Source of the DNA: a virus
Taxonomy: Duplodnaviria; Heunggongvirae; Uroviricota; Caudoviricetes
IMG/VR virus record: IMGVR_UViG_2529293246_000006
Length of the DNA: 35,493 bases
Strand: one strand, 5' to 3'
The translations under genes and the position numbers were made by a program. The notes under the pieces were generated by a model. The model ran no database searches, was not told the origin of the DNA, and saw nothing but the letters and a program-made list of their open reading frames with translations. Shown piece by piece: positions 8,336 through 35,493 of the stretch. Within the stretch, counting starts at the first letter, position 1, and each line of letters opens with the position of its first letter.

Positions 8336-8370
8336 TCTGTTCCTATTAAGAACATTAGAGGTATAAGGAC

Positions 8371-8904
8371 ATGACTATGCGCAAATTATTTTTACCGTTG
8401 ATATTTGTTTTATCTGGGTGTGGAGATAATACCGATCCTGCTGATACGTCCACCACAGCTAAGGAGCACGCGGTTTTTAGCGTTGAAACAGATAATCCGG
8501 TTGTAAATCGCGAATTACCGTTTATTCGCCAACAACTCCCCGGCCTGGATAAGTACGCGGACAGTTTTGAAAAAGTCGAAGTATCCGAGGATAGCGAACG
8601 TCCGGTGACAACGGTGCAGTTTCATATTAAAGACGAAAATAATATTCCAAGTGACTACATAGCCTCTGGTCATAATTGTTATTTGTTCATATCAAATAAT
8701 GCCCACGAAGTGAAAATATCTAAATCAGCATGTCAGGCTGTTTTTTTCGATAAAACGGATGTTCCTGGTGGAGACCTGACCGTGAAACTTGATAAGGAAA
8801 AAGTTCCTATGACAGATGATGGTAAGACCCCGCGAGCAGGTTGTTTGAAAGCTTATTCACCAGAGCCAGATAATGATTATTGGACTTGTCCAAGGCAGGA
8901 TTAA
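8371..8904 (+). CDS. lipoprotein of unknown function (moron; candidate superinfection-exclusion protein)
   Basis: 177 aa. N-terminus MTMRKLFLPLIFVLSGCGDN is a lipoprotein signal peptide with an LSGC lipobox. The gene and flanks are visibly AT-richer than neighbouring phage genes. Confidence 0.65.
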   Translation: MTMRKLFLPLIFVLSGCGDNTDPADTSTTAKEHAVFSVETDNPVVNRELPFIRQQLPGLDKYADSFEKVEVSEDSERPVTTVQFHIKDENNIPSDYIASGHNCYLFISNNAHEVKISKSACQAVFFDKTDVPGGDLTVKLDKEKVPMTDDGKTPRAGCLKAYSPEPDNDYWTCPRQD

Positions 8905-9722: not shown

Positions 9723-9769
9723 TATCCGTAAGCCTTTTGCAATCAATGAAAATATGGCAGGCTAGTCTG

Positions 9770-9781
9770 GTCTCGCGAGAC
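9770..9781. promoter_or_regulatory. perfect 12-bp palindrome GTCTCGCGAGAC upstream of dam
   Basis: Seen directly in the dam/holin divergent intergenic region, about 50 bp upstream of the dam start. Candidate operator; function unknown. Confidence 0.3.
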
Positions 9782-9969
9782 TGACTGAACCCTGGTCGGC
9801 TCACAGTGCATACCTGTGGGTTGATGACCAGCCTGGTGTTACCGCACCGGGCTGGTCGTTCTTTCAAAGCCATCATGCGGTTCACGTCTGCATCCTCACT
9901 ATTAACGCTGTTTAAAATCCCTTTCCCCGACCATTTGTGATGCTGTCTCCACTACACAAGGAGACGCTC

Positions 9970-10320: not shown

Positions 10321-11057
10321 TGATGACCCTCTATATGTACTGGCCTCAGGTTGTCTGGGCCGTGCTGGTACTGCTGGGGCTGGGCATCGAACTGGCCCGC
10401 TACGGGCAGGCCCGAACGGGTAAGCACAGTTTCTGGTGGCAGCTCTTTGGTTCAGCAACGGTAGCCTGGCTGCTCTGGTGTGGCGGCTTCTTCAGTCAGG
10501 CCCGCGCTGCCCAGCCACCGCAGACCGCGCTGCAGTATCGCGACGATGTGATCCGTAATGCCCGGCTTGAATGGGGAATGTCTGCGCCGGTGGCCGACTT
10601 CGCCGCGCAGCTGCATCAGGAAAGCGGCTGGCGACCTGATGCGGTCTCGCCGGTTGGCGCTCAGGGACTGGCGCAGTTTATGCCCACCACCGCTGACTGG
10701 ATAAGTCAGCTGATGCCGGGGCTTAACAGCCGTGAACCGTTTAATCCGTCTTGGGCCATCCGGGCGCTGGTCAGCTATGACCGCTGGCTGTGGCAACGAG
10801 TCAGCGCCGTCAATGACTGCGAGCGTATGGCCATGACGCTGTCAGGCTATAACGGTGGTCTGGGCTGGGTACAGCGGGACAAACGGCTGGCCTCGCAGCA
10901 GGGGCTGGACAGCACCCGCTGGTTTGGTCATGTCGCCACGGTGAATGCCGGACGCAGCACTGCCAACTGGCGGGAGAACCGTCATTATCCGCAGCGCATC
11001 CTGCACGAACTGGCCCCGCGTTATCTCACCTGGGGAGGCGGCAGCTGTGTGGACTAA
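10320..11057 (+). CDS. endolysin, lytic transglycosylase (SLT domain) with hydrophobic N-terminal segment
   Basis: 245 aa. Contains ...LHQESGWRPDAVSPVGAQGLAQFMPTTADW..., resembling the SLT catalytic region. The hydrophobic N-terminus suggests a signal-anchor (SAR-type) endolysin. Confidence 0.75.
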   Translation: MMTLYMYWPQVVWAVLVLLGLGIELARYGQARTGKHSFWWQLFGSATVAWLLWCGGFFSQARAAQPPQTALQYRDDVIRNARLEWGMSAPVADFAAQLHQESGWRPDAVSPVGAQGLAQFMPTTADWISQLMPGLNSREPFNPSWAIRALVSYDRWLWQRVSAVNDCERMAMTLSGYNGGLGWVQRDKRLASQQGLDSTRWFGHVATVNAGRSTANWRENRHYPQRILHELAPRYLTWGGGSCVD

Positions 11058-17201: not shown

Positions 17202-17237
17202 GGGGCTGTATTACCTTTATAAAGGCTTTACAGCCCC
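17202..17237. promoter_or_regulatory. 36-bp imperfect palindrome in the G-I intergenic spacer
   Basis: GGGGCTGT...CCTTTATAAAGG...ACAGCCCC, with 8-bp perfect outer arms and a 12-bp perfect inner palindrome. Lies in a 214-bp non-coding gap. Confidence 0.4.
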
Positions 17238-17371
17238 CGCTTTGCACCACTATTCGCCCGCAGCGTGACATTCCCCGTACTGATACCCCCGATTTTTTCT
17301 AAAGCAGATTAAAAGCGCTGCTGACGCTTTTTCCACAGACTGTCCCCGACAACGTAACGCGGGACAGCAAA

Positions 17372-18482: not shown

Positions 18483-19436
18483 ATGTCTGACTATTTAAAG
18501 GGTAAGCGCGTTGTTGACCCGGTGCTGACCAGCATCGCTCGCGGTTATAAAAATGCCGCATTTATCGGCGAACGCATCTTCCCCATTGTCCAGACCGATA
18601 AGGAAGGTGTGACCGTCCCGACCTTCGGTAAATCCGCCTTTGTTGAGTACGACACCGAGCGTGCCGTGGGGGCTGACAGTAACGTCCTGGTACGTGAGAA
18701 GACCGGCAAACTGGATCTGGTTCTTAACGAGCACGATCTGGCCGCGCCGGTGGACTACCGCGAGCAGGCGGAGTCGATGTTCAACGAAGAGGCCAAGGCC
18801 ATTCGTCGCGTGACCAGTGGCGTCAACCTGAAGCGCGAACTGTATGCGGCCCGTCTGGCGCAGGACAAAAACGTTTACCCGGCATCGTCCGTTAAAGCAC
18901 TGGCAGCTGCTGAACGCTGGGTCGGTGGTAAAGGTGATCCAATTGGCATTATTGAAGGTGGCATTGAGGCGGTACGTAACAAAACCGGCCTGCGCCCAAA
19001 CCTGATGACCATGGGGGCCAGCGTCATGTCGCTGCTGAAGTTCCACCCGGCGATTCAGGCCGCGATTGGAGCCAACGAGCGCAAGCGTATCACCATCGAA
19101 ATTCTGAAAGACCTTTTCCAACTGGAAGATGTGGCGATCGGCGAGCCGGTCTCCATGGCCTCCATGAAAGACGCGCAGAACAAGGACAAAGTCCCGACCG
19201 ATATCTGGGGTGACAACCTGATGCTGCATTACGTTGGCAAACCGCAACCAGGCACCGACAGCGCCGACGAAAACGAGCCGTCATTCGGTTACACCCTGCG
19301 CCGTAAAGGGATGCCGGTGGCGGATAAATACGACGGTGTCGGCGGCAAAGTGAAGTACTGCCGTTATACCGATATCTACAAAGTCGCCGTGGTCGGTGGC
19401 GATGCCGGGTATCTCGTCACCAACATCGTGAAATAA
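18483..19436 (+). CDS. major head (capsid) subunit (Mu T-like)
   Basis: 317 aa with a good AGGAGAGAACATG start, following the protease/scaffold gene. Confidence 0.75.
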   Translation: MSDYLKGKRVVDPVLTSIARGYKNAAFIGERIFPIVQTDKEGVTVPTFGKSAFVEYDTERAVGADSNVLVREKTGKLDLVLNEHDLAAPVDYREQAESMFNEEAKAIRRVTSGVNLKRELYAARLAQDKNVYPASSVKALAAAERWVGGKGDPIGIIEGGIEAVRNKTGLRPNLMTMGASVMSLLKFHPAIQAAIGANERKRITIEILKDLFQLEDVAIGEPVSMASMKDAQNKDKVPTDIWGDNLMLHYVGKPQPGTDSADENEPSFGYTLRRKGMPVADKYDGVGGKVKYCRYTDIYKVAVVGGDAGYLVTNIVK

Positions 19437-22383: not shown

Positions 22384-22904
22384 TGGCAAAGATTGAGATC
22401 AACCGCATCACGAATGCCAACATCTACCTGGATGGCGCTAACCTGCTGGGCCGGGCCGAGGAGGTCAAACTCCCGGACGTCTCCATGACCATGCAGGAGC
22501 ATAAGGCGCTGGGGATGGTGGGCAAAGTGGAACTCCCGGCAGGCTTCGACAAGCTGGAGGGTGAGATCAAGTGGAACAGCTTTTACCGCGACGCGATGCT
22601 GTCTGCTGCGAACCCGTATAAGTCGCTGGCGCTGCAGTGCCGTTCCAGCGTCCAGCGCTACAGTTCGCAGGGGCTGATTGACGAAATCCCGCTGGTCACA
22701 TTCCTGACGATCATGTTCAAGAAGAACCCGCTGGGGACGTTCAAACAGCACGAGAACGCCGAGTTCTCTAGCAGCTTCACCTGCACGTACATCAAGCAGG
22801 TACTGGATGGTGAAGAGCTGCTGGAGCTGGACTATCTGGCCAACATCTTCCGAGTCGGCGGCGTTGACCAGTTGACTGACTACCGCATCAATATCGGGGG
22901 CTGA
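22383..22904 (+). CDS. tail tube protein
   Basis: 173 aa; ATGA overlap with the sheath stop. Confidence 0.8.
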   Translation: MAKIEINRITNANIYLDGANLLGRAEEVKLPDVSMTMQEHKALGMVGKVELPAGFDKLEGEIKWNSFYRDAMLSAANPYKSLALQCRSSVQRYSSQGLIDEIPLVTFLTIMFKKNPLGTFKQHENAEFSSSFTCTYIKQVLDGEELLELDYLANIFRVGGVDQLTDYRINIGG

Positions 22905-22906
22905 CG

Positions 22907-23188
22907 GTGACCGTCGAGATTGAAGATAAAGGCGGGAACTGTGGTTCGATTGGCATGGGAAATGGTACGTGGTTTACCATCCTTGATATTCCGGGGGTGG
23001 AAAACCTTTTTAATACCCAGAAAACCAATGACCCGATTGACTGCACCCGCTCTAAAGCACGGAAGCTCGCTGACCTGATTGAGGCATGGGAGCCACCTGA
23101 CCACTGGTTCACCGGCATCGGCAAATCTGAAGGAAAGGCGCTTCTTATCGCCTTCCTGCGTAACTGCAAAGGCTTTCGCACTCACTGA
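22907..23188 (+). CDS. hypothetical protein, moron inserted between tail tube and tail chaperone genes
   Basis: 93-aa ORF from the GTG at 22907 (GGGGG Shine-Dalgarno 7 nt upstream); an alternative ATG at 22955 gives 77 aa. Followed by its own intrinsic terminator. No recognisable motif. Confidence 0.4.
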   Translation: MTVEIEDKGGNCGSIGMGNGTWFTILDIPGVENLFNTQKTNDPIDCTRSKARKLADLIEAWEPPDHWFTGIGKSEGKALLIAFLRNCKGFRTH

Positions 23189-23194
23189 TATCAC

Positions 23195-23218
23195 AGGGGC
23201 TTCGGCCCCTTTCTTCTT
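23195..23218 (+). terminator. rho-independent terminator after the moron
   Basis: AGGGGC-TTCG-GCCCCT hairpin (23195-23210) followed by TTCTTCTT. Confidence 0.6.
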
Positions 23219-23286
23219 AATCCCCTTTAATATCCGTCACGTCCACCTCCAGACATACTGCTCTGAACTTACACAGGAGCACGATC

Positions 23287-23601
23287 ATGTCACAGACCCA
23301 ATCCGATACTTTTAAGCTGTCTTACCCCTTCACCACCGCAGCAGGCACCAGAGTTGAGCAGGTTGAACTGAAACGCCTGACGGTCAAAGACCTGAAGCAG
23401 GTGCGCAAAATCAGTAAAGACCCGGCTGACTGGGACGAACCGCTCATTGCCCGTAGCACCGGTATTCTCCCCGAAGACCTCGATAACATGGATCTTGCCG
23501 ATTACATGGAGCTGCAGAAACGATTTCAGCAAGTCACTGGGCTGGGCAAGAGCGACGAAAACGCTGATGCAGGCGCAGGGGCTGCTGGCGAGGTGGTTTA
23601 G
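23287..23601 (+). CDS. tail assembly chaperone (P2 E / Mu gp41-like)
   Basis: 104 aa with an AGGAG Shine-Dalgarno, between the tube and tape-measure genes. An overlapping downstream ORF sits in another frame. Confidence 0.6.
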   Translation: MSQTQSDTFKLSYPFTTAAGTRVEQVELKRLTVKDLKQVRKISKDPADWDEPLIARSTGILPEDLDNMDLADYMELQKRFQQVTGLGKSDENADAGAGAAGEVV

Positions 23602-23704
23602 ATTTCAGCCGGGGGAGATTGATGCCCTCGATACTGACGATCTGGAGATGTGGCTGGAGCAGGCTGAAGAGCAAATCAAAAGCGAGTTCGGCGACAATCA
23701 GTAA
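23447..23704 (+). other. +1-frame overlapping ORF: probable frameshift extension of the tail chaperone
   Basis: ORF in the +1 frame overlaps the 3' part of the chaperone gene and runs 103 nt beyond its TAG (23599-23601), ending ...EIDALDTDDLEMWLEQAEEQIKSEFGDNQ. The -1 frame hits a stop quickly. Slip site not identified. Confidence 0.45.
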
Positions 23705-23796
23705 CGACTCATCACTTAACAGCCGCCCCTCGCGGCTGTTCTGCATGGCTCTCAGACATTTTCCTTCCGTTTTTCCGCTTTCAGAGGATAACAACC

Positions 23797-26262
23797 GTGG
23801 CCAGTGAATTTTCAGTCGGCGTCATTATTGGCGGCATTGTCGGAAGCAGCTTCCGCTCAGCCGTCAGTGGCACCCGACGCGCCCTAGATTCCCTGGGCGA
23901 TACATCGCGCCGCCTGCAGGAACGCCAGAATGCCTTAACTCGTGCAACTGAACGTTATGGCCAGTTAGGCTCTTCCCGGATGCAGCGCCTCAACAGCGAA
24001 CTGCTGCGGGTAAGCCGCACAATGGAGCAAATTGAACGCCAGCAGCGCCGTCTGTCAGCAGTATCAGCCACCAGTGACGCGCTGAAAGCTAACCGCATGG
24101 CGCTCTATGGCCAGGGAGCAGAGACTTATGGTATCGCCCGAACGCTGGGCGCACCGGTCATGGCCTCTGTCAAACAATATTCATCGTTTGAATCCCAGCT
24201 ACGCGATATCAGTGTCACCGGTGATCTGGATTCAAGGCAGGAACAGGCCATCGGTACTGCCATTCGTCGGGCATCCCTGCAGGTCAATCAGCTCCAGGAA
24301 TCTCTGTTGAGCGGCGTTGGTCAACTGGTTGCCGATGGCATGAATCCGCAGCAGGCAGCGACCTTTGCCGGGATGCTCGGTAAAGCGGCCACGGCCACCA
24401 AAGCAGATATGACTGACCTCGCAAAAATGACCTATGCCTTTAGCGATGCGCTGAAAATTACCGATGCCAAAGAGCTGGAGCAGGCGTTTGGGATTGCGGC
24501 AACCGGGGCCAAGCTAGGCTCGTTTGAGCTGAAGGATATGGCGAAAGCGTTACCCGGTATGGCCAAAGCCTTCGCTGCACGTGGTATTTACGGCAAAGAC
24601 GCCATAACCCAGATCGTAGCCAGTCTGGAAGTGGGTAAAGGCAGCGGCTCAGCGGAAGAGGCCGTCACCAATATGTCAAACTGGCTGGCGGCAATGGGAC
24701 GCGGAGATACCACGCAGAAATACGCTAAGGCTGGCGTGGATTACCAGGGATCAATGCAAAATTATGTAGCCCAGGGGTTCTCTCAATATGAAGCCTCCCT
24801 GATGATTGCCAACCGGTTTATCGACGGTAAAGGCAAGGCATTTGTGCAGCAATGGAAGGCGGCAGGCTCAAGAGGCGATCAGGAAGGCCAGCAGAGGCTG
24901 ATGGAGTCCTTCGGACTGGCGGAAGTCTTTACCGATATCCAGACCGTGAACCATCTACTGTCTATGCGTCAGGGCTGGGATAAGTACCAATCTAACAAGC
25001 AGGAAATGAACACTCCCTCTGCAATGTCTACGCTGGACAAGGATGCAGCGAAACAAAATGATACGCTCGAAGGACGTTGGCGCAGAACGCAGATTGGGTT
25101 TAACGACTCGGCCATTAGCATCGGAGAATCATTACGTCCGGCGTTGATCCAGCTGGGGGAAACATTCATCCCCTTAATGAACAGCGTTGGAAAATGGATT
25201 GCGGCTAATCCGCAACTCGTGAGCGGCACAATTCAAGTGATTGGCGCATTACTTGCGTTCAAGATGGCAACCATCGGCCTCAAGCTCGGGCTGAATCTCC
25301 TTATTTCACCTTTCGTCAACGTCTGGAAAAATGCCGTGCTCCTGCGGGCCAACTGGCTTCGCCTGACACTCGCGCTGGGTGAAGGCGGCAAACTTCGCTG
25401 GCTGGTGACCGGCTTCAGCGCCGTCGCCAGAGGAGCCAGAACACTGGGTGGTGTGCTGTCAGGTGGGCTGGTTCGCGGCATTATGATCGCCGGGCGTGCC
25501 GTTCTCTGGATTGGGCGGGCATTGCTGATGAATCCCATTGGTCTTGCTATCACCGCCGTCGCGGCGGCGGCTTATCTTATTTATCGTAACTGGGGGGCTG
25601 TCAGCAGTTGGTTCAAACAGCGCTGGGCTGACATTAAAGAGGCTTTTAACGGCGGTATCGTGGGGATTGGTAAACTGCTGATTAACTGGTCGCCGGTTGG
25701 TCTGCTCTATAAAGCCTTTGCGGCTGCGCTGAAATATCTCGGCGTTGATCTGCCCGCGAAGTTCACTGACTTCGGTGGCCATCTTATCGACGGGCTGATA
25801 AACGGCATCAAAAACAAATGGGAGTCGCTCAAAACCACCGTCACAGATATGGGTGACAGTGTCGGCGGCTGGTTCAAGGAAAAGCTGGGTATCCATTCGC
25901 CGAGCCGCGTGTTTATGGGCTTTGGTGACAACATCGCGCAGGGTGCCGCTATCGGCCTGCAGCGTACCACACCACTGGCAGCGCTCGCCGGACAACGCCT
26001 GGCAACAGAGATGACTCCCGATGTTCCCCGTATCCCGTCGCCGGAAATCATGGCTGCGGGATATTCAGGTCGTGGCGCAGTTGCAACTGGCGGCGGAACA
26101 TCTGGCGGTATCCAGGTCAGCTTTAATCCTCAGTTTTTCCTCAATGGCAAAGAAACCGCAGCGCCTGCCGGACTGACCGGCGCACTGAATATGAGCCTGC
26201 ATGAACTGGAGAAAATGCTGGAGCGTCTGCTGGCTCAGAAACAACGTCGGGGGTACGAATAA
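23797..26262 (+). CDS. tail tape measure protein
   Basis: 821 aa. Largely alpha-helical N-terminal two thirds, hydrophobic segments and a Gly-rich C-terminus. GTG start after an AGAGGA Shine-Dalgarno. Confidence 0.85.
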   Translation: MASEFSVGVIIGGIVGSSFRSAVSGTRRALDSLGDTSRRLQERQNALTRATERYGQLGSSRMQRLNSELLRVSRTMEQIERQQRRLSAVSATSDALKANRMALYGQGAETYGIARTLGAPVMASVKQYSSFESQLRDISVTGDLDSRQEQAIGTAIRRASLQVNQLQESLLSGVGQLVADGMNPQQAATFAGMLGKAATATKADMTDLAKMTYAFSDALKITDAKELEQAFGIAATGAKLGSFELKDMAKALPGMAKAFAARGIYGKDAITQIVASLEVGKGSGSAEEAVTNMSNWLAAMGRGDTTQKYAKAGVDYQGSMQNYVAQGFSQYEASLMIANRFIDGKGKAFVQQWKAAGSRGDQEGQQRLMESFGLAEVFTDIQTVNHLLSMRQGWDKYQSNKQEMNTPSAMSTLDKDAAKQNDTLEGRWRRTQIGFNDSAISIGESLRPALIQLGETFIPLMNSVGKWIAANPQLVSGTIQVIGALLAFKMATIGLKLGLNLLISPFVNVWKNAVLLRANWLRLTLALGEGGKLRWLVTGFSAVARGARTLGGVLSGGLVRGIMIAGRAVLWIGRALLMNPIGLAITAVAAAAYLIYRNWGAVSSWFKQRWADIKEAFNGGIVGIGKLLINWSPVGLLYKAFAAALKYLGVDLPAKFTDFGGHLIDGLINGIKNKWESLKTTVTDMGDSVGGWFKEKLGIHSPSRVFMGFGDNIAQGAAIGLQRTTPLAALAGQRLATEMTPDVPRIPSPEIMAAGYSGRGAVATGGGTSGGIQVSFNPQFFLNGKETAAPAGLTGALNMSLHELEKMLERLLAQKQRRGYE

Positions 26263-27146
26263 TGTTTGCGGTACTGGGTGATATTGAGTTTGAACTGATT
26301 ACCTACTGGGACGGCTTTGAGGCCACTTTCGGTGTCGATTATGCGGAACATGCCCGCATAGAGGGTAAGCCCGGCCTGCAGTTCGTCGGCGACAAGCTGG
26401 ACGAAATCCAGATAAGCCTGGTCTTCCATCAGCATTATTGTGTGCCCGACGTGGAGCTGGCGAGACTGAGAACGGCCATGAAAGCCCATCAGGCGCTGGC
26501 ACTGGTTTTCGGCAACGGTGACTATCGCGGCTGGTTTGTGATTACCGACGTGACCGCGACCAGCGAGCAGACCGACAGCACAGGCAACGTGCTGGCCGTC
26601 AATGCCACCGCATCTCTCCGGGAGTACATCGGCGACCCGAAGAACCCGCTACAGCCTCCTGCGATACGCACGCAGGTTCCCGGCGTCGGGGCGGTCTCCG
26701 GTGCCGTACCTTCTCCCTCCGGGGTGGCGCAGTACGTTCGCGACGGCGTCAACTATGCCAAACAGGCGCAGTCTGTTCTCCAGACCACCATCAGCGCCGT
26801 TCGGGTGGCGCAGAAAATGAAGGATAACCCCGCCGTCGCGCTGACCCGCGTGCCGGGGCTGATGAGCGGACTGGGCAACGTGTCCGGGGCGTTAGGCCAG
26901 AGCGTTCCGGCATTCAATGCGCTCTCTGAATCCATGCCTGATGCCATCAGTCTGGCCAGAGCCACCAGCGATGCGGCCACGTATGTACAACAGGCACAGT
27001 CTTCGCTGAGCGGCGTGGACGGCAGCAATATCGCGGCAGCGCTGGATGCCGTTTCCGGGCAGCTTAACTCCGCCAGCACCACCTTCACTCGTATGTCGCC
27101 GGGGTTAAGCACCATGGCAGCTAAAATTCTGGCGAGGAGTGTGTGA
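26262..27146 (+). CDS. tail protein (P2 gpU-like N-terminal domain with Ala/Ser-rich C-terminal extension)
   Basis: 294 aa immediately after the tape measure. The N-terminus (MFAVLGDIEFEL...QFVGDKLDEIQISL) resembles gpU. Family from memory. Confidence 0.5.
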   Translation: MFAVLGDIEFELITYWDGFEATFGVDYAEHARIEGKPGLQFVGDKLDEIQISLVFHQHYCVPDVELARLRTAMKAHQALALVFGNGDYRGWFVITDVTATSEQTDSTGNVLAVNATASLREYIGDPKNPLQPPAIRTQVPGVGAVSGAVPSPSGVAQYVRDGVNYAKQAQSVLQTTISAVRVAQKMKDNPAVALTRVPGLMSGLGNVSGALGQSVPAFNALSESMPDAISLARATSDAATYVQQAQSSLSGVDGSNIAAALDAVSGQLNSASTTFTRMSPGLSTMAAKILARSV

Positions 27147-27358
27147 TGTTTCTTGAACATGTTACCCGTGACGGAGAGCGCTGGGACTCTCTGGCATGGC
27201 AGTACTACGGCGACCCACTGGGCTATCCCCGGATAATTGCCGCCAATCCGCACGTGGCCATTACGCCGGTGCTGCCCTCCGGGCTGTTGTTACTGATCCC
27301 GGTTATCGAGGCTGAAGAAGCCACCACAGAAGAGGATATTGCCCCATGGCTGAGATAA
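27143..27358 (+). CDS. tail protein X-like (LysM-like small tail protein)
   Basis: 71 aa. ...WDSLAWQYYGDPLGYPRIIAANPHVAITPVLPSGLLLLIP fits the Phage_tail_X pattern. Confidence 0.65.
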   Translation: MMFLEHVTRDGERWDSLAWQYYGDPLGYPRIIAANPHVAITPVLPSGLLLLIPVIEAEEATTEEDIAPWLR

Positions 27359-28515
27359 ACAGCACTGCACAGGTCGCATCAGCGTTAACCGGCGTCAGCG
27401 ATGTTCTGAGTCCGGTGTTCACGCTGTGGTATCTGCAGAAGAACATCACCACCGATATCGCCCCCTATGTCACCCGCGTAACCTACAGCGATAACATCAA
27501 AAGCGAGTCCGATACCATTGAGGTGGAGCTGGACGACACCGATGGCCGCTGGCTGGATAAGTGGTATCCGGGCAAGGGTGACACGCTGACGCTGAAAATG
27601 GGTTATCAGGGCGAGAAGCTGCTGTCCTGTGGTACGTTCTCGATAGACGAGATCGAGGTGAGTTCGCCCGCGTCCGTTGTCGCTATCCGGGGCGTGGCCA
27701 CGTCGGTCAACAACGCCCTGCGGACAAAATCCAGTCGTGGTTTCGAGAGCACCACGCTGGCGGCTATAGCCGGACGGATTGCCAAAAAGCATCAGCTGAA
27801 GCTGGTTGGCAGTATTGAGTCCATCAAAATTGACCGGGTGACCCAGTATGCTGAAACGGACGTGGGCTTCCTGCGTCGACTGGCCAGCGAGTATGGTTAT
27901 GCCGTGAAAGTGGTCAGCGACCAGCTGATTTTCTCTCATCTGGCCACGCTGCGCGATCAGGAGCCGGTAAAACAGTTGAAGCCACAGGATGTGGCCAGCT
28001 TTTCCCTGCGTGACACCATCAACCGCGTCTACAAATCCGCAAAGGTAAAACACCAGAAGAGCAGCGATAAAAAGCTGATCGTCTACGAAGCTGATGGCGG
28101 TACCAGCGAAAGCGACAAACAAACCAAAGGCGGTAAGGTCACCAGTGCCGACTCACTGAAGGTCAACAGCCGCGTCAGTGATCCGGACAGCGCCCGGATT
28201 AAAGCAGATTCGGCGCTGGCCAGGCATAACGAATACCAGCAGAACGGCTCGCTGTCGCTGATGGGGACGCCTCAGTTGACTGCAGGCAACAAAATTGAAC
28301 TGGTGGGTTTTGGTCAGTTATCCGGGCCATGGCTGATAACTACTGCCCGCCATGCGTTTGACCGTAACAGCGGCTACATCACCGAACTGGAAGTGGCACG
28401 AGGGCCGGTTACGCAGGGCAAAGCGAAGAAAGGTAAAAAGACCGGAAAAACCCAGACGCTGACCGTCTATAAACCGGACGGCAGCACGTCCACGGTAATA
28501 AAGGAGAAAAAATAA
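27346..28515 (+). CDS. tail/baseplate hub protein (P2 gpD-like)
   Basis: 389 aa following the X-like gene, as in the P2-type X-D pair. Family from memory. Confidence 0.7.
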   Translation: MAEINSTAQVASALTGVSDVLSPVFTLWYLQKNITTDIAPYVTRVTYSDNIKSESDTIEVELDDTDGRWLDKWYPGKGDTLTLKMGYQGEKLLSCGTFSIDEIEVSSPASVVAIRGVATSVNNALRTKSSRGFESTTLAAIAGRIAKKHQLKLVGSIESIKIDRVTQYAETDVGFLRRLASEYGYAVKVVSDQLIFSHLATLRDQEPVKQLKPQDVASFSLRDTINRVYKSAKVKHQKSSDKKLIVYEADGGTSESDKQTKGGKVTSADSLKVNSRVSDPDSARIKADSALARHNEYQQNGSLSLMGTPQLTAGNKIELVGFGQLSGPWLITTARHAFDRNSGYITELEVARGPVTQGKAKKGKKTGKTQTLTVYKPDGSTSTVIKEKK

Positions 28516-29027
28516 TGGCAGGCGTCACCCGTCAGGTCGGTACGGTCAGCGCCGTCGATGCCGACAAGGTTCAGGCCCGCGTTCGTCTGCCTGAGTGCGA
28601 TAACCTGCGCACTAACTGGCTTAACGTACTGCAGCGCAACACCCAGGATAACAAGGATTACTGGCTACCTGACGTGGGGGAGCAGGTTGAGGTGCTGCTC
28701 GATGCCAACGGCGAGGATGGTGTCATTCTGGGCGCGGTGTATTCAGACGTCGATAAGCCACCGTTCAGCGACAAAAACGTCCGGGGCACGAAATACGCGG
28801 ATGGCGCAGAGTTCAGCTATAACCGCGCGACCCATACGCTGACGGTCAAAGGTGGTATCGAGCGCGTAGTAATCGAGGTTGCGGTAGGTATCAGCCTGAA
28901 GGGGAAAACCATTGATTTGACCGCTGACACCACCACGGTGAACGGCAACCTTGAAATCAACGGCAATGCCCACTCCACAGGCAGCATGCTCTCTGACGGC
29001 CAGAACTCCAATCATCACTCCCACTGA
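28515..29027 (+). CDS. baseplate spike protein (P2 gpV-like)
   Basis: 170 aa; OB-fold-like N-terminus and His-rich C-terminus (NSNHHSH). Position precedes the W/J/I genes. Confidence 0.7.
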   Translation: MAGVTRQVGTVSAVDADKVQARVRLPECDNLRTNWLNVLQRNTQDNKDYWLPDVGEQVEVLLDANGEDGVILGAVYSDVDKPPFSDKNVRGTKYADGAEFSYNRATHTLTVKGGIERVVIEVAVGISLKGKTIDLTADTTTVNGNLEINGNAHSTGSMLSDGQNSNHHSH

Positions 29028-29081
29028 CCTTCTTAAACGCCTTTAATATCGGCGTTCCCGCACAGGGGCAATACTGCCCCC

Positions 29082-29429
29082 ATGAAAACTACTTCCGTAT
29101 TCTGGCAACCGGCCCTGCAGGCCCCTGGCGAAATCGTCCGGGGGCTGGATGATATCTGGCAGGCCATTCAAATCATCCTGCGAACTCCTCGCGGCAGCGA
29201 CCCGCATCGCCCGGAGTTCGGCAGCAACCTGCATCTTTATATCGACTGGCCCATCGACCGGGCTATCCCACATGTGGTGCGCGAGTCCGTTGATGCCATC
29301 CGGCGCTGGGAGCCTCGCTGCCAGCTTATGTCGGTTAAACCCGCCGTCGACGGTGAACATCTTACGCTCCGGGTGAGCTGGAAAGGCTCTGACGGACAGC
29401 CCCGGACTCAGGAGCTTTTATGGCGCTGA
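29082..29429 (+). CDS. baseplate protein (P2 gpW / GP25-like)
   Basis: 115 aa directly upstream of the baseplate J gene. Confidence 0.7.
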   Translation: MKTTSVFWQPALQAPGEIVRGLDDIWQAIQIILRTPRGSDPHRPEFGSNLHLYIDWPIDRAIPHVVRESVDAIRRWEPRCQLMSVKPAVDGEHLTLRVSWKGSDGQPRTQELLWR

Positions 29430-30523
29430 CAGAACCCGATTTTATTGAACGCGATGCCGACAAAATCACGGCTGAAATGATTGCTCAGTACGAAGCCGCA
29501 ACCGGCAAGACGCTGTACCCCGCCCAGGCTGAGCGCCTGTTGATTGACCTGTGGGCATACCGCGAAATGCTGGTCAGGGTAGCGGCGCAGGAAGCGGCCA
29601 AACAGAATCTGGTCGCCTTTGCCCGTGAGCCGATGATTGATTACCTCGGTGAACTGGTCGGTGTTTACCGCCTTGCCGCGCAGCCTGCCACCACCACTCT
29701 CCAGTTCTCCGTGGATGAGGCACTGGCCATTGATGTGCTGATTCCGGCAGGCACCCGCGTCAGCGCTTCCGACAGCATTATTTTTGCCACCGATACGGAC
29801 GTGGTGCTGAAAGCCGGATTGCTTCTGGTCAATGCCACGGCCACCTGTACCGAACCGGGAGCCGCTGGCAATGGCTGGCAACCTGCGCAGGTCAGTCAGT
29901 TGCTCGATGAGATTGATAACGTCGACCTGCAGGTGACCAATCTGATGGCAAGTTCTGGCGGTTCAGAGCAGGAAGACAATGACAGGCTCCGCGAGCGTAT
30001 CAAACTGGCCCCGGAGTCATTCACCAACGCCGGAAGCCGTATGGCATACCGCTTTCATGCCATGCAGGCCCATCCCAACATCGTCGACGTCGCTGTGCTC
30101 TCCCCGGTTCCCGGCACCGTAGAACTGTATCCGCTGCTCAGTACCGGCCTGCCGGACGACAGCATCCTCACTCTGGTAGAGAGCTTCTGCTCAGACGAAA
30201 AAGTCAGGCCGCTCACTGATACCGTGCGGGCTAAAACGCCCGTGCAGGTGGATTACACCATAGATGCCCAGATCACCATCTACCGCAATCAGGATGCCAA
30301 CTCGGTAAAAGACGAGGCAAACAACGCCATCCAGAACTGGGTCGCAGCCCGAAGAACCAAGCTGGGCGTGGATATCGTCCCCGGACAAATTAACGCGGTG
30401 TTGACTGTCAGCGGCGTTTACCAGGTTGAACTACCCGGCCTTGAACTTGTTGTTCTTGCAGAGAATGAGTGGGCTAATTGTACCGCCATCAACGTAACTA
30501 TCACGGGAGTTGTCGATGGCTGA
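29420..30523 (+). CDS. baseplate protein J (P2 gpJ-like)
   Basis: 367 aa; position and size fit. Confidence 0.75.
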   Translation: MALTEPDFIERDADKITAEMIAQYEAATGKTLYPAQAERLLIDLWAYREMLVRVAAQEAAKQNLVAFAREPMIDYLGELVGVYRLAAQPATTTLQFSVDEALAIDVLIPAGTRVSASDSIIFATDTDVVLKAGLLLVNATATCTEPGAAGNGWQPAQVSQLLDEIDNVDLQVTNLMASSGGSEQEDNDRLRERIKLAPESFTNAGSRMAYRFHAMQAHPNIVDVAVLSPVPGTVELYPLLSTGLPDDSILTLVESFCSDEKVRPLTDTVRAKTPVQVDYTIDAQITIYRNQDANSVKDEANNAIQNWVAARRTKLGVDIVPGQINAVLTVSGVYQVELPGLELVVLAENEWANCTAINVTITGVVDG

Positions 30524-31096: not shown

Positions 31097-32071
31097 ATGG
31101 CAAACCTACCTGAAACCCCGCAGTGGGAAGACGGCATCTACCAGATTGAGGTCTCCGACCCCGTACTGGGCGGGCCTGACGGAATTTCTAACCGTCAGGC
31201 TAAACAGCTGGCCAGCCGTACTTCATACCTGAAACAACAGGTTGAAAAAGGCGGTTCAGATCTCGCGAAACACATCGCAGCGGCCGACCCGCATACCCAG
31301 TACGCGACGAAGGCCAGCCCAACATTCACGGGTACGCCAACGGCCCCCACGCCTGCAGCTAATGACAATAGCAAAAAGCTGGTGACGACAGAATTTGTGG
31401 CGAGGGCGATTGCTGCGCTTGCAGGTACAGCCCCAGAAACACTGGATACGCTGAAAGAGCTGGCTGATGCCCTTGGCAACGATCCAAACTTTGCGACCAC
31501 AGTGCTGAACAAGCTGGCGGAGAAACTGGCCAAAGACCAGAACGGTGCGGATATTCCCGATAAGGCAGCCTTTCTTCAAAACCTTCGTTTGGGAGCAGGT
31601 GCTCCAGCTATCGGTATTCCGTTCTTCTGGCCTTCAGCTGCGATGCCTAATACCGTCATAGATGAATGGGCAGATATGGTGTTTCTGAAATTCAACGGTG
31701 CGACATTTTCGGCAACAACTTATCCGAAGCTAGCTAAGGTGATCCCCAGTCTGACGCTAACCGAGGCTCGGGGTGAGTTTCCGCGCATTTGGGATGATGG
31801 GCGTGGCGTGGATAACGGGCGTGCATTGTTGAGTATACAGGGTGATGCCATCAGAAATATCACCGGTAATGTCGGCGTTTATTCAGATGGTTTATTAACT
31901 TATGCTTCTGGTGTTTTTTCTCTTGGGTCTTCATCATCGAATAAAAATAACCCAATAGCAGGGAGCGGGGCAAATGCTTACGCCACTTTTGATGCTTCAA
32001 AAGTCGTACCAACAGCTTCTGAAAACCGTCCTCGTAACATCGCTTTTAACTTCCTTGTGAGAGCAAAGTAA
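31097..32071 (+). CDS. tail fibre protein (constant N-terminal part 31097-31583 plus invertible variable C-terminal part)
   Basis: 324 aa. The left inversion site (31571-31596) lies inside the gene. The C-terminal part is AT-rich compared with the N-terminal part. Confidence 0.75.
   Translation: MANLPETPQWEDGIYQIEVSDPVLGGPDGISNRQAKQLASRTSYLKQQVEKGGSDLAKHIAAADPHTQYATKASPTFTGTPTAPTPAANDNSKKLVTTEFVARAIAALAGTAPETLDTLKELADALGNDPNFATTVLNKLAEKLAKDQNGADIPDKAAFLQNLRLGAGAPAIGIPFFWPSAAMPNTVIDEWADMVFLKFNGATFSATTYPKLAKVIPSLTLTEARGEFPRIWDDGRGVDNGRALLSIQGDAIRNITGNVGVYSDGLLTYASGVFSLGSSSSNKNNPIAGSGANAYATFDASKVVPTASENRPRNIAFNFLVRAK
31571..31596. repeat. left inversion site (gix/hix-like), core TT at 31584-31585
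   Basis: TTTCTTCAAAACC-TT-CGTTTGGGAGC is an inverted copy of the site at 33431-33456 and resembles the Hin hixL site TTCTTGAAAACCAAGGTTTTTGATAA as I recall it. Confidence 0.7.
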
Positions 32072-32682
32072 TGAAACCTATTTTTAATGAAAATGGACTG
32101 GCAACTGAGGCGGGCGATATTCGCTGCTTTTACTATGACTCTTTTACTTATGAATATACGGGCTGGTCTGACGAACATATTAACGTTGGTGTAAGCATGC
32201 CGGGGAATTCGACCGATATTGATCCGGGTGATGAGGTGTCAGGCATGGTCGCTGTATTTAACTGTGATGCATGGAATCAACAGGAAGACCACCGCGGCGA
32301 AACCGTATTTTCTACCGCTGATAGTAGCCATGTAACCGTTGATTACATCGGTGAAATCAGAGACGGCTTCACAACAGCAGCTCCTGCCACACCTTACGAT
32401 AAGTGGGATGGGGAGAAGTGGATAACGGATAGTGAAGCGCAGCACACAGCCAACATCGCCGCTGCTGAAGTAGACAAACAGTCCAAAATTGACCAGGCCA
32501 ATGAATACATCAACAGTAAGCAGTGGCCCGGCAAAGCCGCTTTGGGCCGCCTAAGTGACGCGGAGAAAGAGCAATATAATTTGTGGCTGGATTATCTCGA
32601 TGCGCTGGAAGCTGTAGACACCTCCAGTGCTCCAGATATTAACTGGCCTACTCAGCCTGATAATCGGGAGCAGGCTGGGTAA
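32071..32682 (+). CDS. tail fibre assembly chaperone (Mu U / P2 G-like)
   Basis: 203 aa; ATGA overlap with the fibre gene. Lies inside the invertible segment and is AT-rich. Confidence 0.65.
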   Translation: MKPIFNENGLATEAGDIRCFYYDSFTYEYTGWSDEHINVGVSMPGNSTDIDPGDEVSGMVAVFNCDAWNQQEDHRGETVFSTADSSHVTVDYIGEIRDGFTTAAPATPYDKWDGEKWITDSEAQHTANIAAAEVDKQSKIDQANEYINSKQWPGKAALGRLSDAEKEQYNLWLDYLDALEAVDTSSAPDINWPTQPDNREQAG

Positions 32683-32839
32683 ATGCGGCGCCATCGTATA
32701 AATACCCCGACTCAACGTCATCAGGACAATTAACCCAAACCAACGAGGGGTGGAAACGCCCCTCCGGATCTACATCTACGGTTTCTTCAACGCGAAAGTT
32801 TTCTTTGCCTTCAATTTTTTTAATTCTTGCCCATGTCAT
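32648..32839 (-). CDS. small putative tail-fibre assembly protein for the alternative fibre (U'-like)
   Basis: 63 aa, convergent with and overlapping the 3' end of the plus-strand assembly gene; follows the alternative fibre cassette on the minus strand. Confidence 0.4.
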   Translation of the reverse strand: MTWARIKKIEGKENFRVEETVDVDPEGRFHPSLVWVNCPDDVESGYLYDGAAFTQPAPDYQAE

Positions 32840-32843
32840 TTAA

Positions 32844-33442
32844 TCACCACTCAATAATCACAATACCATTTTTACCGGAGCCGGATTTATTACTACTGTT
32901 AGCAGCAATCCCACCACCACCGCCCCCATAACCAGGCGCATCCAGACCCATCCCTGTAGATCCTCGGCCTCCGGGGCCGCCACCGTTGCCGCCGCAATTT
33001 GCCGAGTTGGCTGAACCGTCATCCCCCCAACCCAACCCCTGATTAACGTCTCCGCCAAAACCGGCTCCCGACGAACCACCGGATGTTGATGTGCCGCCAT
33101 ACCCATACTGACCACCAGTCGCGGAGAGATAAGAACCAAAAGAAGATGACCCACCGGATGCGCCATTACCTGTAGTTACGCCAGCACCAGCAGAGCCAAC
33201 GGTTACCGTAACGCTTGAAACGTCTGTGAGATCGAGAAGCAATTTCGAATATCCGCCACCGCCGCCACCGCCCCCGCGCTTTGTTGTATCGGTAGTCGAC
33301 CCGCCAGACGCTCCACCACCAATTACTGTCACCTGGCATTTTCGCCCTTGTTGGAGTGCCTCAGGAACGTTCCAGTTAGATACTCCAGGGGTGTTGAAAA
33401 CAACTATGTTTTGCAGGCCAAAGGCCGATGCTCCTAAACCAA
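32844..33442 (-). CDS. alternative tail-fibre C-terminal variable domain (Sv'-like), promoterless cassette, Gly-rich
   Basis: Minus-strand ORF reads ...FSKNLGLGASAFGLQNIV... across the right inversion site, in frame with the constant part (FLQNL) after inversion. Contains long Gly runs (GGGGGGGG, GGGGGG). Confidence 0.55.
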
Positions 33443-33456
33443 GGTTTTTGGAAAAG
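33431..33456. repeat. right inversion site (gix/hix-like), core AA at 33441-33442
   Basis: CTCCTAAACC-AA-GGTTTTTGGAAAAG is the inverted partner of the site at 31571-31596; 61 bp upstream of the invertase start. Confidence 0.7.
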
Positions 33457-33516
33457 CAGTTACACATAGCGAAATCTGCAAAAATCCTCCTACCGCGACA
33501 TAGAGGAGGAAAATTG

Positions 33517-34098
33517 ATGGCCGTCATTGGTTATATCCGCGTATCAACAATCGACCAGAACAGCGATTTACAGCGTAATGCGCTCACAAGCGCAAACTGT
33601 GACCGCATTTTTGAAGACCGTATGAGCGGAAAAGTTGCCAGCCGCCCCGGTCTGAAACGCGCTTTAAAGTGCGTTAATAGCGGAGACACCCTGGTCGTGT
33701 GGAAACTGGACAGGCTGGGGCGCAGCGTTAAGAACCTGATCGCACTGATATCAGAATTACATGAACGCGGTGCCCACTTCCGCTCTTTAACAGACAGTAT
33801 TGATACCAGCACTGCCATGGGGCGCTTCTTTTTCCATGTGATGTCAGCACTGGCGGAGATGGAACGTGAGCTGATCGTCGAACGAACACTGGCCGGGTTG
33901 GCAGCAGCCAGAGCACAGGGACGCATAGGTGGAAGGCCCAATGCATTAAAACCGCATGAGCGGGAACAGATTGGGAGACTATTGGCCAGGGGACATACTC
34001 GCCAGCAACTGGCCATAATCTACGGAGTGGGATTATCGACGCTCTATCGGTATTTTCCGGTAGATAGTCAGAGGAAGGATGAAGCGGTAGGATTGTAA
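33517..34098 (+). CDS. gin: site-specific serine DNA invertase (Gin/Hin/Pin/Cin family)
   Basis: 193 aa. MAVIGYIRVSTIDQNSDLQRNAL...GDTLVVWKLDRLGRS...SLTDSIDTS..GRFFFHVMSALAEMERELIVERT closely matches the Gin/Hin sequences I recall, including the catalytic Ser in VSTIDQ. GAGGAGGA Shine-Dalgarno. Confidence 0.9.
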   Translation: MAVIGYIRVSTIDQNSDLQRNALTSANCDRIFEDRMSGKVASRPGLKRALKCVNSGDTLVVWKLDRLGRSVKNLIALISELHERGAHFRSLTDSIDTSTAMGRFFFHVMSALAEMERELIVERTLAGLAAARAQGRIGGRPNALKPHEREQIGRLLARGHTRQQLAIIYGVGLSTLYRYFPVDSQRKDEAVGL

Positions 34099-34132
34099 TT
34101 CTTTTGCAAATATTGAAACGCCGCAGCGATGC

Positions 34133-34176
34133 CATTTATCTCACGGAAATGGGCGCATTTATCGCGCGGCGCATCA
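34133..34176. repeat. prophage right terminus with two transposase-binding-like repeats; phage DNA ends ...CA at 34176
   Basis: CATTTATC at 34133-34140 and 34156-34163. Read inward from the end, the terminus is TGATGCGCCGCGCGATAAATGCG..., resembling the Mu R end TGAAGCGGCGCACGAAAAACGCG...CGATAAATGCG as I recall it. Confidence 0.65.
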
Positions 34177-35493
34177 TTTCATGGTTACGCCGGTGATTAA
34201 ACCAATCACCGCCACTACCATCAGGTAATAGGCAGGCATCATCAGATTCTGCGAGCTTTCGACCAGCCAGGCCGCCAGTGTTGGCGTCAGACCGGCAACC
34301 AGCACCGAAATATTAAATGCCGCCGCCAGCGCGCTGTAACGGATATGCGTCGGGAACATCGCTGGCAAGGTAGAAGCCATAACGCCCGTAAAGCAGTTAA
34401 GGATCACCGCCAGCATCAGTAACCCGGCAAAAATCAGGCCGATGACGTTACTGTTAATCAGAATAAACGCCGGGATCGCCAACACAAACAGGGCAACACT
34501 ACCAAGTAGCACAAACGGACGACGGCCAAAACGGTCACTCAGCAAGCCCATCACCGGCTGGACAAACAGCATACCGATCATAATGGCGATAATAATCAGC
34601 ACCCCGTGGTCTTCGGAGTAATGCAGGTTATGCGACAAATAACTCGGCATATAGGTCAGCAACATGTAGTAAGTCACGTTGGTGGCAATTACCAGACCAA
34701 TACATGTCAACAGGCTGCGCCAGTGTTTGGTGGCAATCTCTTTAAACGAGACTTTCGGGCCATCCTGCAAACCTTCGCGGTCGCCCTGTTCCAGTTTATC
34801 GACATGCTGCTGGAACGCCGGAGTTTCTTCCAGCGCATGGCGCAGGTAAAGCCCGATAATCCCTAACGGCAGAGCAATAAAGAACGGAATACGCCAGCCC
34901 CAGTCGAGGAAGTTCGCTTCGCCGACAATGGTCGAAATTAACACCACTACGCCAGCACCCAGCACAAACCCGGCAATAGAACCAAAGTCCAGCCAGCTGC
35001 CCATAAAGCCACGTTTACGGTCAGGGGAGTATTCCGCAACAAATATCGACGCCCCGGTATATTCACCGCCGACCGAGAAACCTTGTGCCATCTTACAGAT
35101 CAACAGCAGAATCGGTGCCCAAATACCAATCGTGTCGTAGGACGGTATTAAGCCAATACAGAACGTACTGATCGACATAATCACAATAGTGATAGCGAGG
35201 ATCTTCTGGCGACCATATTTATCGCCCAACATACCAAAGAAGAGTCCGCCAAGCGGTCGAATCAGAAAGGGAACGGAGAACGTGGCAAGTGCAGCAACCA
35301 TCTGCACGCTGGGGTCAGCCCCCGGGAAAAAAACTTTACCTAATGCGTAAGCAACAAAACCATAAACACCAAAATCAAACCATTCCATTGCATTACCCAG
35401 TGATGCTGCGGTAATGGCTTTACGCAGTTTACCGTCATCAATAATGGTGACATCACGAAGGGTAATCGGTTTTACTTTTTTCCTTTTCAGCAT
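34174..35493 (-). CDS. proP: proline/glycine-betaine MFS transporter ProP, 3'-truncated by the prophage insertion (439 of ~500 codons)
   Basis: Protein starts MLKRKKVKPITLRDVTIIDDGKLRKAITAASLGNAMEWFDFGVYGFVAYALGKVFFPG..., matching E. coli ProP from memory. The frame ends ...GVTMK and then a TGA formed by the phage terminal TGA at 34174-34176. The C-terminal domain is missing. Confidence 0.8.
   Translation of the reverse strand: MLKRKKVKPITLRDVTIIDDGKLRKAITAASLGNAMEWFDFGVYGFVAYALGKVFFPGADPSVQMVAALATFSVPFLIRPLGGLFFGMLGDKYGRQKILAITIVIMSISTFCIGLIPSYDTIGIWAPILLLICKMAQGFSVGGEYTGASIFVAEYSPDRKRGFMGSWLDFGSIAGFVLGAGVVVLISTIVGEANFLDWGWRIPFFIALPLGIIGLYLRHALEETPAFQQHVDKLEQGDREGLQDGPKVSFKEIATKHWRSLLTCIGLVIATNVTYYMLLTYMPSYLSHNLHYSEDHGVLIIIAIMIGMLFVQPVMGLLSDRFGRRPFVLLGSVALFVLAIPAFILINSNVIGLIFAGLLMLAVILNCFTGVMASTLPAMFPTHIRYSALAAAFNISVLVAGLTPTLAAWLVESSQNLMMPAYYLMVVAVIGLITGVTMK

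Follow-up and report, generated by a model that had tools for sequence, protein, structure and literature searches.

A repeated dyad motif as the probable Mor operator of four late promoters in a BcepMu-like prophage

A short motif is repeated upstream of two blocks of tail genes in a stretch of 35,493 nucleotides of viral DNA (IMG/VR record IMGVR_UViG_2529293246_000006, Caudoviricetes), which in its full length is called the window in the following. Here we describe the sites that are built around this motif and the late promoters of which they probably form part. RefSeq annotation together with a Pfam scan characterised the window as a BcepMu-like transposable (Mu-like) phage. Positions 22800-29500 are 100% identical to a prophage of Escherichia coli AW1.7 and 98.8% identical to Klebsiella phage KP12. 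Over positions 1-31600 the window and the AW1.7 prophage share 99.3% identity, and past 31600 they diverge. The early operon runs leftward from 7615 to 1 and encodes a DDE transposase, an ExeA-type ATPase, a gp16/GemA-like protein and, as its last product, a Mor-family protein. The late region reads rightward from 9970 and comprises holin, transglycosylase, terminase and portal genes, the head genes and tail genes of the P2 type.

An earlier note on this sequence had described an 8-bp block followed after 3 nt by an 11-bp block, once at 23213-23234 and again at 29029-29050. Both copies are present exactly at these coordinates, the first as CTTCTTAA-TCC-CCTTTAATATC and the second as CTTCTTAA-ACG-CCTTTAATATC. 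A formal count against chance, which the note had named as a check, gave two matches where 0.01 were expected, and none of 100 dinucleotide shuffles contained two or more. Even when up to three mismatches were allowed, just these two matches were found in the window. The copies agree at 19 of 22 positions. Beyond the 8 and 11 bp, both hold the dyad TTAA-N6-TTAA, and in both the heptamer ATACTGC lies exactly 42 nt from the start of the motif. A 9-mer, CACAGGGGC, is also found near each copy; as a functional link between the two motifs it was rejected, given that it varies independently at each site in relatives.

The exact dyad occurs only four times in the window, at 9902, 23217, 29033 and 33664, and a copy with one mismatch (CTAA-N6-TTAA) lies at 17299. 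When the sites at 9902, 17299, 23217 and 29033 were aligned on the dyad, a −10-like hexamer was found exactly 23 nt further on in each of them, in every case followed by a G. All four lie on the strand of the late genes, in the gaps before the holin gene, the I-like protease/scaffold gene, the tail chaperone gene and the gpW-like gene, and are referred to as Plys (hexamer GATGCT), Phead (CAGACT), Ptail1 (CATACT) and Ptail2 (AATACT), respectively. A scan of the window for the full pattern (dyad with at most one mismatch, N23, nAnnnT) returned five matches on the plus strand and none on the minus strand, compared to about 0.39 expected per strand and a maximum of three in shuffled sequences (n = 300). 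With the dyad required to be exact there were three matches versus about 0.01 expected. Of the five full-pattern matches, four fall into intergenic gaps ahead of late gene blocks, of which the window has only few. A promoter scan for the sigma-70 −35/−10 consensus made no call at any of the four sites, and direct reading 17 bp upstream of each hexamer gave agreement with TTGACA at no more than two of six positions. The remaining exact dyad, TTAAAGTGCGTTAA at 33664-33677, belongs to the variable tail-fibre/recombinase region, and a search of both strands found no −10-like hexamer at the right distance from it.

Transcript starts were predicted from the geometry of the Mu promoter Pm, i.e. as the dyad centre plus 43.5. 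At Plys, in front of the lysis operon, the putative Mor box TTAAcgctgtTTAA occupies 9902-9915 with an exact dyad and the hexamer 9939-9944, such that transcription would start at about 9951-9952; a Shine-Dalgarno (SD) sequence, AAGGAG at 9958-9963, and the holin ATG at 9970 follow. The earlier note had pointed out a likeness between this leader and the motif. The shared AATCCCTTT is literally there at 9916-9924, but it had been aligned 10 bp out of register: the stretch that corresponds to the motif in the lysis leader is TTAACGCTGTTTAA (9902-9915), which likewise precedes a −10-like hexamer by 23 nt. The noted similarity between the ribosome-binding contexts of the lysis and chaperone genes is real (ACTTACACAGGAGCACGATCATG versus ACTACACAAGGAGACGCTCATG). 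The earlier note had overlooked a fourth copy, CTAAAGCAGATTAA, which precedes the head protease/scaffold gene at 17299-17312. It constitutes the putative Mor box of Phead (CTAAagcagaTTAA, dyad with one mismatch), with the hexamer at 17336-17341, a predicted start at A17349 and the ATG of the I-like gene at 17372.

The two copies that had been noted contain the boxes of the tail promoters as their cores. For Ptail1 the putative box is TTAAtcccctTTAA at 23217-23230 and the hexamer lies at 23254-23259, which gives a predicted start at A23267. Downstream follow the SD sequence GGAG (23276-23279) and, at 23287, the ATG of the tail-chaperone gene (Pfam Phage_TAC_7, E = 6.8e-23). For Ptail2 the putative box is TTAAacgcctTTAA at 29033-29046, and the hexamer at 29070-29075 is followed by a predicted start at 29082/29083. 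An inverted repeat, AACGCC...GGCGTT at 29036-29056, brackets the promoter-proximal TTAA half-site of Ptail2 and is shared by close relatives alone. We also considered whether the palindromic Plys box might serve a small minus-strand open reading frame (ORF; 9679-9885) and dam in the divergent direction, and judged the match coincidental. On the minus strand a CATGAT is found at N24 from the Plys dyad (9872-9915); divergent activation seems unlikely because this CATGAT overlaps a likely start codon and would lie upstream of the implied start.

The sites are kept at the same four places in BcepMu, in PhiKM and in phages of Ralstonia, Pseudomonas and Pasteurella; about 230 other loci show them as well. 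When the same pattern was scanned over six complete BcepMu-like genomes, few matches occurred beyond the late-gene sites; only the AT-rich genome of the Pasteurella phage gave more. PhiKM, Ralstonia YO107_2 and Pseudomonas Komp_PAO1_1 carry sites before their lysis, head, chaperone and gpW genes, and in Komp_PAO1_1 there are exactly four matches, all of them TCTTTAAACCCGATTAAAAGCC. Pasteurella AFS-2018a has the four sites plus many extra matches. In BcepMu the scan detected three sites and one extra match before gene 19; the Phead box of this phage, gGTAAagccgaTTAA, is at a position equivalent to that in the window.

For a broader sample we took one genome per species with a gpW alignment, which provided 80 loci from Enterobacterales, Burkholderiales, Pseudomonas and others. 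In 74 of them a Ptail2-type box and hexamer immediately precede the gpW-like gene, and the Ptail1 site, about 6 kb upstream of this gene, is conserved in most. Over 1.11 Mb the pattern occurred 141 times on the gene strand versus 22 times on the other strand, with nearly all gene-strand matches at −49 to −80 nt or at about −6 kb from gpW. The Phead site was found in 74 of 75 related viral loci, where its position is −73 relative to the ATG of the I-like gene; for Plys, 78 of 78 such loci carry a site of this form, 68-87 nt before the holin ATG. The consensus of 108 distinct instances reads T-N2-yTAA-N4-C-T-TTAA-w-A-t-c, then (g/c)AtAcT-G, with an unconstrained spacer: dyad and −10 hexamer are nearly invariant while the 23 nt between them vary. 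A promoter with an operator upstream of it would be expected to leave just such a pattern of conservation. The prophage group itself is widespread. DNA related to the tail region of the window was found in 646 of 5,426 complete E. coli genomes, and relatives exist in Burkholderia, Pseudomonas, Pectobacterium, Photorhabdus and other genera.

The earlier note had also paired the two motif copies with two hairpins. Both hairpins are present, but they are not equivalent, the first being a terminator upstream of the box and the second a hairpin around the −10 hexamer. The first, GGGGC-TTCG-GCCCC at 23196-23209 (RNA fold −11.8 kcal/mol, z −3.0), precedes the motif and is followed by a T-run. With its full stem AGGGGC-TTCG-GCCCCT and the tail TTCTTC it was called terminator-like over 23195-23216 on the plus strand. 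It lies 7 nt past the stop codon of the ORF at 22907-23188, and the Mor box is flanked on its upstream side by the T-run. A GC-rich stem with a T-run is found at the equivalent place in most of the related loci displayed, the stem sequence being specific to the clade. By these features the element is a rho-independent terminator, which would end the Phead unit and, with it, the sheath/tube/93-aa block. The second hairpin, GGGGCA-ATAC-TGCCCC at 29065-29080 on the plus strand (−12.0 kcal/mol, z −2.3), starts 15 nt downstream of the motif, lacks a T-run and encloses the Ptail2 hexamer. A perfect stem of at least 5 bp around this hexamer was present in 49% of 53 distinct relatives, compared to 2% after shuffling of the flanks. 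At least seven different stem sequences occur, e.g. GGGGGC/GCCCCC, GCGGC/GCCGC, GCCCTG/CAGGGC and GAGGGC/GCCCTC, and in some clades the stem reaches over the ATG. Counted in a single register the pairing is modest (68% of cells paired versus 55% in shuffles, with slid controls close); the register of the stem differs by clade, and the composition of G-runs and C-runs inflates the controls. The test made sequence by sequence gave the clearer result.

These data allow to judge whether the two copies could be a chance or duplication-derived repeat without function, with the hairpins as mere terminators between gene blocks. The copies do share more than the family consensus needs, namely the agreement at 19 of 22 positions and CACAGGGGC, and the hairpin at 23195 is truly terminator-like. 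Conservation of both sites by position in hosts of three orders, with diverged flanks, already contradicts this explanation, however, and the 9-mer changes at one site independently of the other in relatives. Moreover, the second hairpin has no T-run and surrounds a −10 hexamer. We therefore regard a functionless repeat as highly improbable.

A candidate for the protein that acts on the sites is encoded at the left end of the window. The earlier note had placed the late activator outside of the window; this is refuted by the minus-strand ORF at 1-390, which matches the Pfam Mor profile (PF08765) over its full length with E = 1.3e-42 and carries the RefSeq label 'Mor transcription activator family protein'. 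Its product is 30% identical to Mu Mor, 35% to Mu C and 53% to BcepMu Mor. A tblastn search of the window for further Mor/C homologues found none besides 1-390. Mor homologues were found in 108 phage records, and each of the six complete site-bearing phages encodes one. The product of 1-390 is the presumed protein that binds the motif. Since its gene is the last of the early operon and no second member of the family was found, the regulatory cascade appears to be two-tiered, early and then late, rather than three-tiered as in Mu.

In phage Mu the Mor element is composed of two 5-bp inverted repeats with a G/C-rich hexanucleotide in between, spans 16 bp and is centred at −43.5, and the promoter Pm that contains it has a −10 but no −35 element (PMC4390567; PMC4287176). 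Applied to Mu, the same scan finds Pm, as GTAAagccggTTAA-N23-TATCCT at 9174. The published Mu positions −57G and −54A fit only a start (+1) at 9224, which puts the element at 9173-9188, AGTAAagccggTTAAT.

We consider it very probable that the repeated motif is the operator of the single Mor/C-family activator of this phage and that its dyad marks four late promoters in the BcepMu-like prophage, two of them at the copies noted earlier. Such a promoter would consist of a dyad of 14-16 bp, (c/t)TTAA-N6-TTAA(a/t), 23 nt of spacer and a sigma-70-type −10 element (nAnnCT, usually followed by G), with no −35 element. By analogy with Mu Pm, Mor would sit on the dyad centred near −43.5, where it would replace the absent −35 contact and recruit the host RNA polymerase. 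Plys would then drive the lysis, terminase and portal genes, and Phead the protease/scaffold, capsid, sheath and tube genes. Ptail1 would serve the chaperone, the tape measure and the gpU/X/D/V-like genes, and Ptail2 the gpW/J/I-like baseplate genes together with the tail fibre. At the sequence level the four sites have the make-up of Mor-type promoters and are the kind of element to be expected here. We infer binding by Mor, dependence on this activator and the exact transcript starts from this correspondence. The suggestion of the earlier note that the motifs are activator sites at operon starts is supported by the dyad, its spacing to the −10 hexamer and the missing −35 element, all of which match Mu Pm, and by the conservation of the four positions in distant relatives; the location of the activator, which lies inside the window, has to be corrected.

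The dyads may also bind another protein, such as the prophage repressor, the transposase, IHF or an Ogr/Delta protein of the P2 type, and not be part of Mor-dependent promoters. P2-like phages use activators of the Ogr type, and the tail genes of the window are P2-like; furthermore, the TTAA dyad is AT-rich, as are many sites of architectural proteins. An Ogr operator of the P2 type, TGT-N12-ACA near −55, was rejected: five copies were found in the window versus seven expected, and none of them lies within hundreds of bases of the four sites. A repressor operator is unlikely because the early control region (7615-7925) contains no TTAA-N6-TTAA, even when one mismatch is allowed. The fixed spacing of 23 nt to the −10 hexamer and the strand bias of 141 versus 22 are properties of promoters, and the Mor-regulated Pm of Mu carries the same element. 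Binding by a protein other than Mor is therefore in our view unlikely, though somewhat less so than a repeat without function.

As a third possibility the motif could belong to an RNA leader or translational operator shared by the 5' ends of the late transcripts, the alternative that the earlier note had offered. The Plys and Ptail1 leaders are indeed alike in a short sequence around the SD. This explanation fails because the motif lies at about −54 to −33 by the geometry of Pm, or 37-57 nt upstream of the start that the −10 hexamer defines, and would thus not be transcribed from these promoters. At Ptail2 the dyad is just 35 nt from the ATG with the −10 hexamer in between, which leaves no room for a leader. 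Conservation concerns a DNA dyad and a hexamer whose spacing is fixed, with the sequence between them free to vary, and the Plys leader of relatives differs outside the SD. A search of the whole window against Rfam at gathering thresholds gave no match. A common RNA leader is accordingly very unlikely.

Several points weigh against Mor-dependent promoters. The −10 hexamers are weak (CAGACT, GATGCT), and in BcepMu the chaperone promoter has a degenerate proximal half-site (TTAA-N6-CTGA) that falls outside the scan. The relaxed pattern also yields false positives, e.g. the fifth match in the window, which starts at 23312 within the chaperone gene. This match, TTAAgctgtcTTAC-N23-CAGAGT at 23312-23360, covers the 5' end of the gene and is kept in close relatives only, where the coding sequence is conserved anyway, such that it is probably due to chance. 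We found no transcript-start, footprint or activator-dependence data for the BcepMu-like group. A search of the open-access literature found no description of Mor sites or late promoters of BcepMu-like phages, with an earlier description in Summer et al. 2004 being possible. Differential RNA sequencing of the uninduced Burkholderia cenocepacia J2315 lysogen, which carries the BcepMu prophage, lists no primary starts at the late promoters (PMC4603805, Table S3). The latter result gives no test of the model, because a silent prophage should show no late starts.

The position of Ptail2 has a consequence for translation. The gpW/gp25-like baseplate gene (29082-29429, plus strand; Pfam GPW_gp25, E = 7.2e-11) begins 54 nt after the stop codon of the V-like gene at 29027, and this gap is filled by the promoter. 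The N-termini of six homologues align from the ATG at 29082. In the 80 sequences that were scored for this purpose (74 genomic loci, the window and five complete phages) the distance between hexamer and ATG was 6 nt in 60, 7 nt in 9 and 8 nt in 11 cases. An SD-like 4-mer at −16 to −4 was present in none of 56 distinct gpW upstream sequences. The geometry of Pm puts +1 of Ptail2 at 29083, with A29082 as the nearest purine. Because the ATG sits where transcription should begin, the mRNA of the gpW-like gene is predicted to be leaderless. In the BcepMu, Ralstonia and Pseudomonas phages an ATG likewise follows the hexamer of the head promoter after 6-8 nt. In the BcepMu region 18812-18865, gene 32 has its annotated start, 18850, inside the predicted −10 hexamer GATGAT; 12 nt downstream of this start lies an alternative ATG, 7 nt past the hexamer. 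Gene 32 probably starts at this downstream ATG, with a leaderless mRNA.

More tentatively, we propose that the Mor/C-dependent promoters of BcepMu-like phages, and apparently also of Mu, might tie translation of the first gene to transcription that starts at the promoter itself; we rate this as a possibility on the doubtful side. At promoters with a leader, 6-10 nt just upstream of the start would be complementary to the SD or the start codon. At gpW the mRNA would be leaderless, and the GC-rich hairpin wraps the −10 hexamer and abuts or, in some clades, includes the AUG. RNAs that read through from upstream operons, or from host genes beside the randomly inserted prophage, would hold both arms and be translationally silent, while RNAs initiated at the promoter would lack the 5' arm and hence be translated.

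Candidate fold-back pairs on the plus strand were found at the three leadered promoters. At Plys, TGTCTCC (9944-9950), upstream of the predicted start, pairs over 7 bp with GGAGACG at the SD (9960-9966; p = 0.05 versus shuffles). At Phead, CTGTCCC (17340-17346) pairs over 7 bp with GGGACAG (17361-17367; p = 0.04), the 3' arm ending 5 nt before the ATG. At Ptail1 the pair is TGCTCT (23259-23264) with GGAGCA (23276-23281), again at the SD, with 6 bp and p = 0.14 when taken alone. Over 21 relatives 86% of the cells of the Plys pair are paired, compared to 37-51% in slid controls, with zero compensatory changes, and RNAalifold returned no consensus structure for the Plys leaders. For Phead RNAalifold predicts the stem on 13 relatives with one compensatory pair. 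The Ptail1 arms differ between clades at the same place, e.g. TCCTTCGC/GCGAAGGA and TGTTCCTG/CAGGAGCA. The mean longest stem in relatives is 7.0 bp for Plys, 7.05 bp for Phead and 5.65 bp for Ptail1, versus about 4.5 bp after shuffling. Little covariation is seen because the SD cannot vary; with neither a consensus structure nor compensatory changes at Plys, the proposal rests on complementarity rather than on covariation.

Similar complementarity was observed in Mu itself. At Pm, where +1 is known experimentally (9224), positions 9214-9223 pair with 9243-9252 across the ATG of gp18 over 10 bp (p = 0.0013). At the Mu Plys, 10449-10456 pair with 10478-10485 in the region of the lys start codon over 8 bp (p = 0.01). 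No such complementarity was found at the Mu promoters PI and Pmom. To our knowledge, the complementarity in the start regions of Mu Pm and Plys has not been described. Fisher's method gave a combined p = 1.8e-4 over seven promoters for a test that was designed after the pattern had been seen.

Upstream of the lysis cassette, and directed toward it, lie the repressor-side genes (7829-8904, plus strand), which encode an HTH_3/CI-like protein and a 177-aa ORF; dam sits between these genes and the cassette on the opposite strand. If fold-back operates, it could protect against premature expression of the lysis genes, and read-through from the repressor-side unit in the lysogen would be one case in which silencing of the holin start would matter. 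Together with a leaderless gpW mRNA it would amount to an unrecognised translational insulation in the late control of transposable phages, Mu included.

Two further features of the window were noted. The gap between the G-like and I-like genes contains, at 17202-17237, a long inverted repeat, GGGGCTGTA...TACAGCCCC, around the palindrome CCTTTATAAAGG (fold −22.7 kcal/mol, z −2.85). Of 79 related viral loci, 73 retain the element TTTATAAAG(G) of this gap, which occurs also in BcepMu and in a Pseudomonas phage, despite very different G+C content. Counterparts of the repeat lie at about 18735-18765 in BcepMu (L003), 4958-4992 in L004 and 5030-5055 in L006. The strong gyrase site of Mu lies in the equivalent gap between G and I, and the repeat may be an analogue of this site, a protein-binding site or a terminator. 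The right end of the window (31600-35493) carries tail-fibre and fibre-assembly genes unlike those of the AW1.7 prophage, with only 33431-34176 matching again (91%), and a large minus-strand ORF (34174-35493) extends to the window end. Since the right end is unlike that of the AW1.7 prophage, the window derives from a different host strain or insertion site.

For the widespread Mu-like prophages of this group the sites provide a regulon map that combines one activator gene, four operators, the operon boundaries and the predicted starts, and that is useful for annotation and for the design of induction reporters. The roughly 100 natural variants of the putative Mor operator can be compared with the recent cryo-EM structures of Mor and C.

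Several known systems resemble the one proposed here. Fold-back inhibition of read-through transcripts was reportedly described for IS10/Tn10 by Davis, Simons and Kleckner in 1985. As in IS10, sequence upstream of the own start is complementary to the translation initiation region, such that only transcripts from outside would carry both arms. Unlike in IS10, internal late operons of a phage and not a transposase gene are concerned, and the support consists here of complementarity statistics only; the mechanism would represent a phage counterpart of IS10 fold-back. An example of a leaderless mRNA is that of lambda cI transcribed from PRM. The gpW-like gene is similar in that its start codon, 6-8 nt past the −10 hexamer, lies at the predicted transcript start and lacks an SD. 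In contrast to cI it is a structural late gene under an activator-dependent promoter that is conserved across many hosts, and its transcript start is a prediction.

The late promoters of P2 and 186, which use the zinc-finger activators Ogr and B, precede homologous tail blocks (FI/FII/E/T/U/D and V/W/J/I/H) and are likewise activator-dependent and without a −35 element. In P2 the late operon boundaries lie before FI and before V. The window differs in that its operon boundaries are found before E and before W.

The closest likeness is to Mu. As in the window, there are four activator-dependent late promoters in Mu, which depend on C, and two of them precede the same blocks (lysis and the I protease/scaffold). 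The C-activated Pmom, with TTAT-N6-ATAA, N24 and TAAGAT, is within 1 bp of the geometry in the window. The consensus of the Mu C box, ccATAAcCcC, differs from the TTAA dyad, and identity of the two was rejected since the window has TTAA half-sites and another proximal flank (TTAAwATC); geometry alone is in common. Moreover, PP of Mu is inside gene N, whereas the tail promoters of the window precede the chaperone and gpW-like genes, and unlike Mu the window has no promoter of the mom type. With Mu Pm the sites share the 5-6-5 layout (aGTAA-agccgg-TTAAt in Mu, gGTAA-agccga-TTAAa in the BcepMu Phead, TTAA-N6-TTAA in the window), the 23 nt from dyad to −10 hexamer, the missing −35 element and a phage-encoded activator of the Mor family. 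In both systems a terminator abuts or overlaps the box: the early terminator of Mu overlaps its Mor site, and a T-run flanks the Ptail1 box in the window. The two differ in the use that is made of this element. In Mu, Mor drives one middle promoter and its product C activates the late ones, whereas the single Mor/C-family protein of the window apparently drives four late promoters directly.

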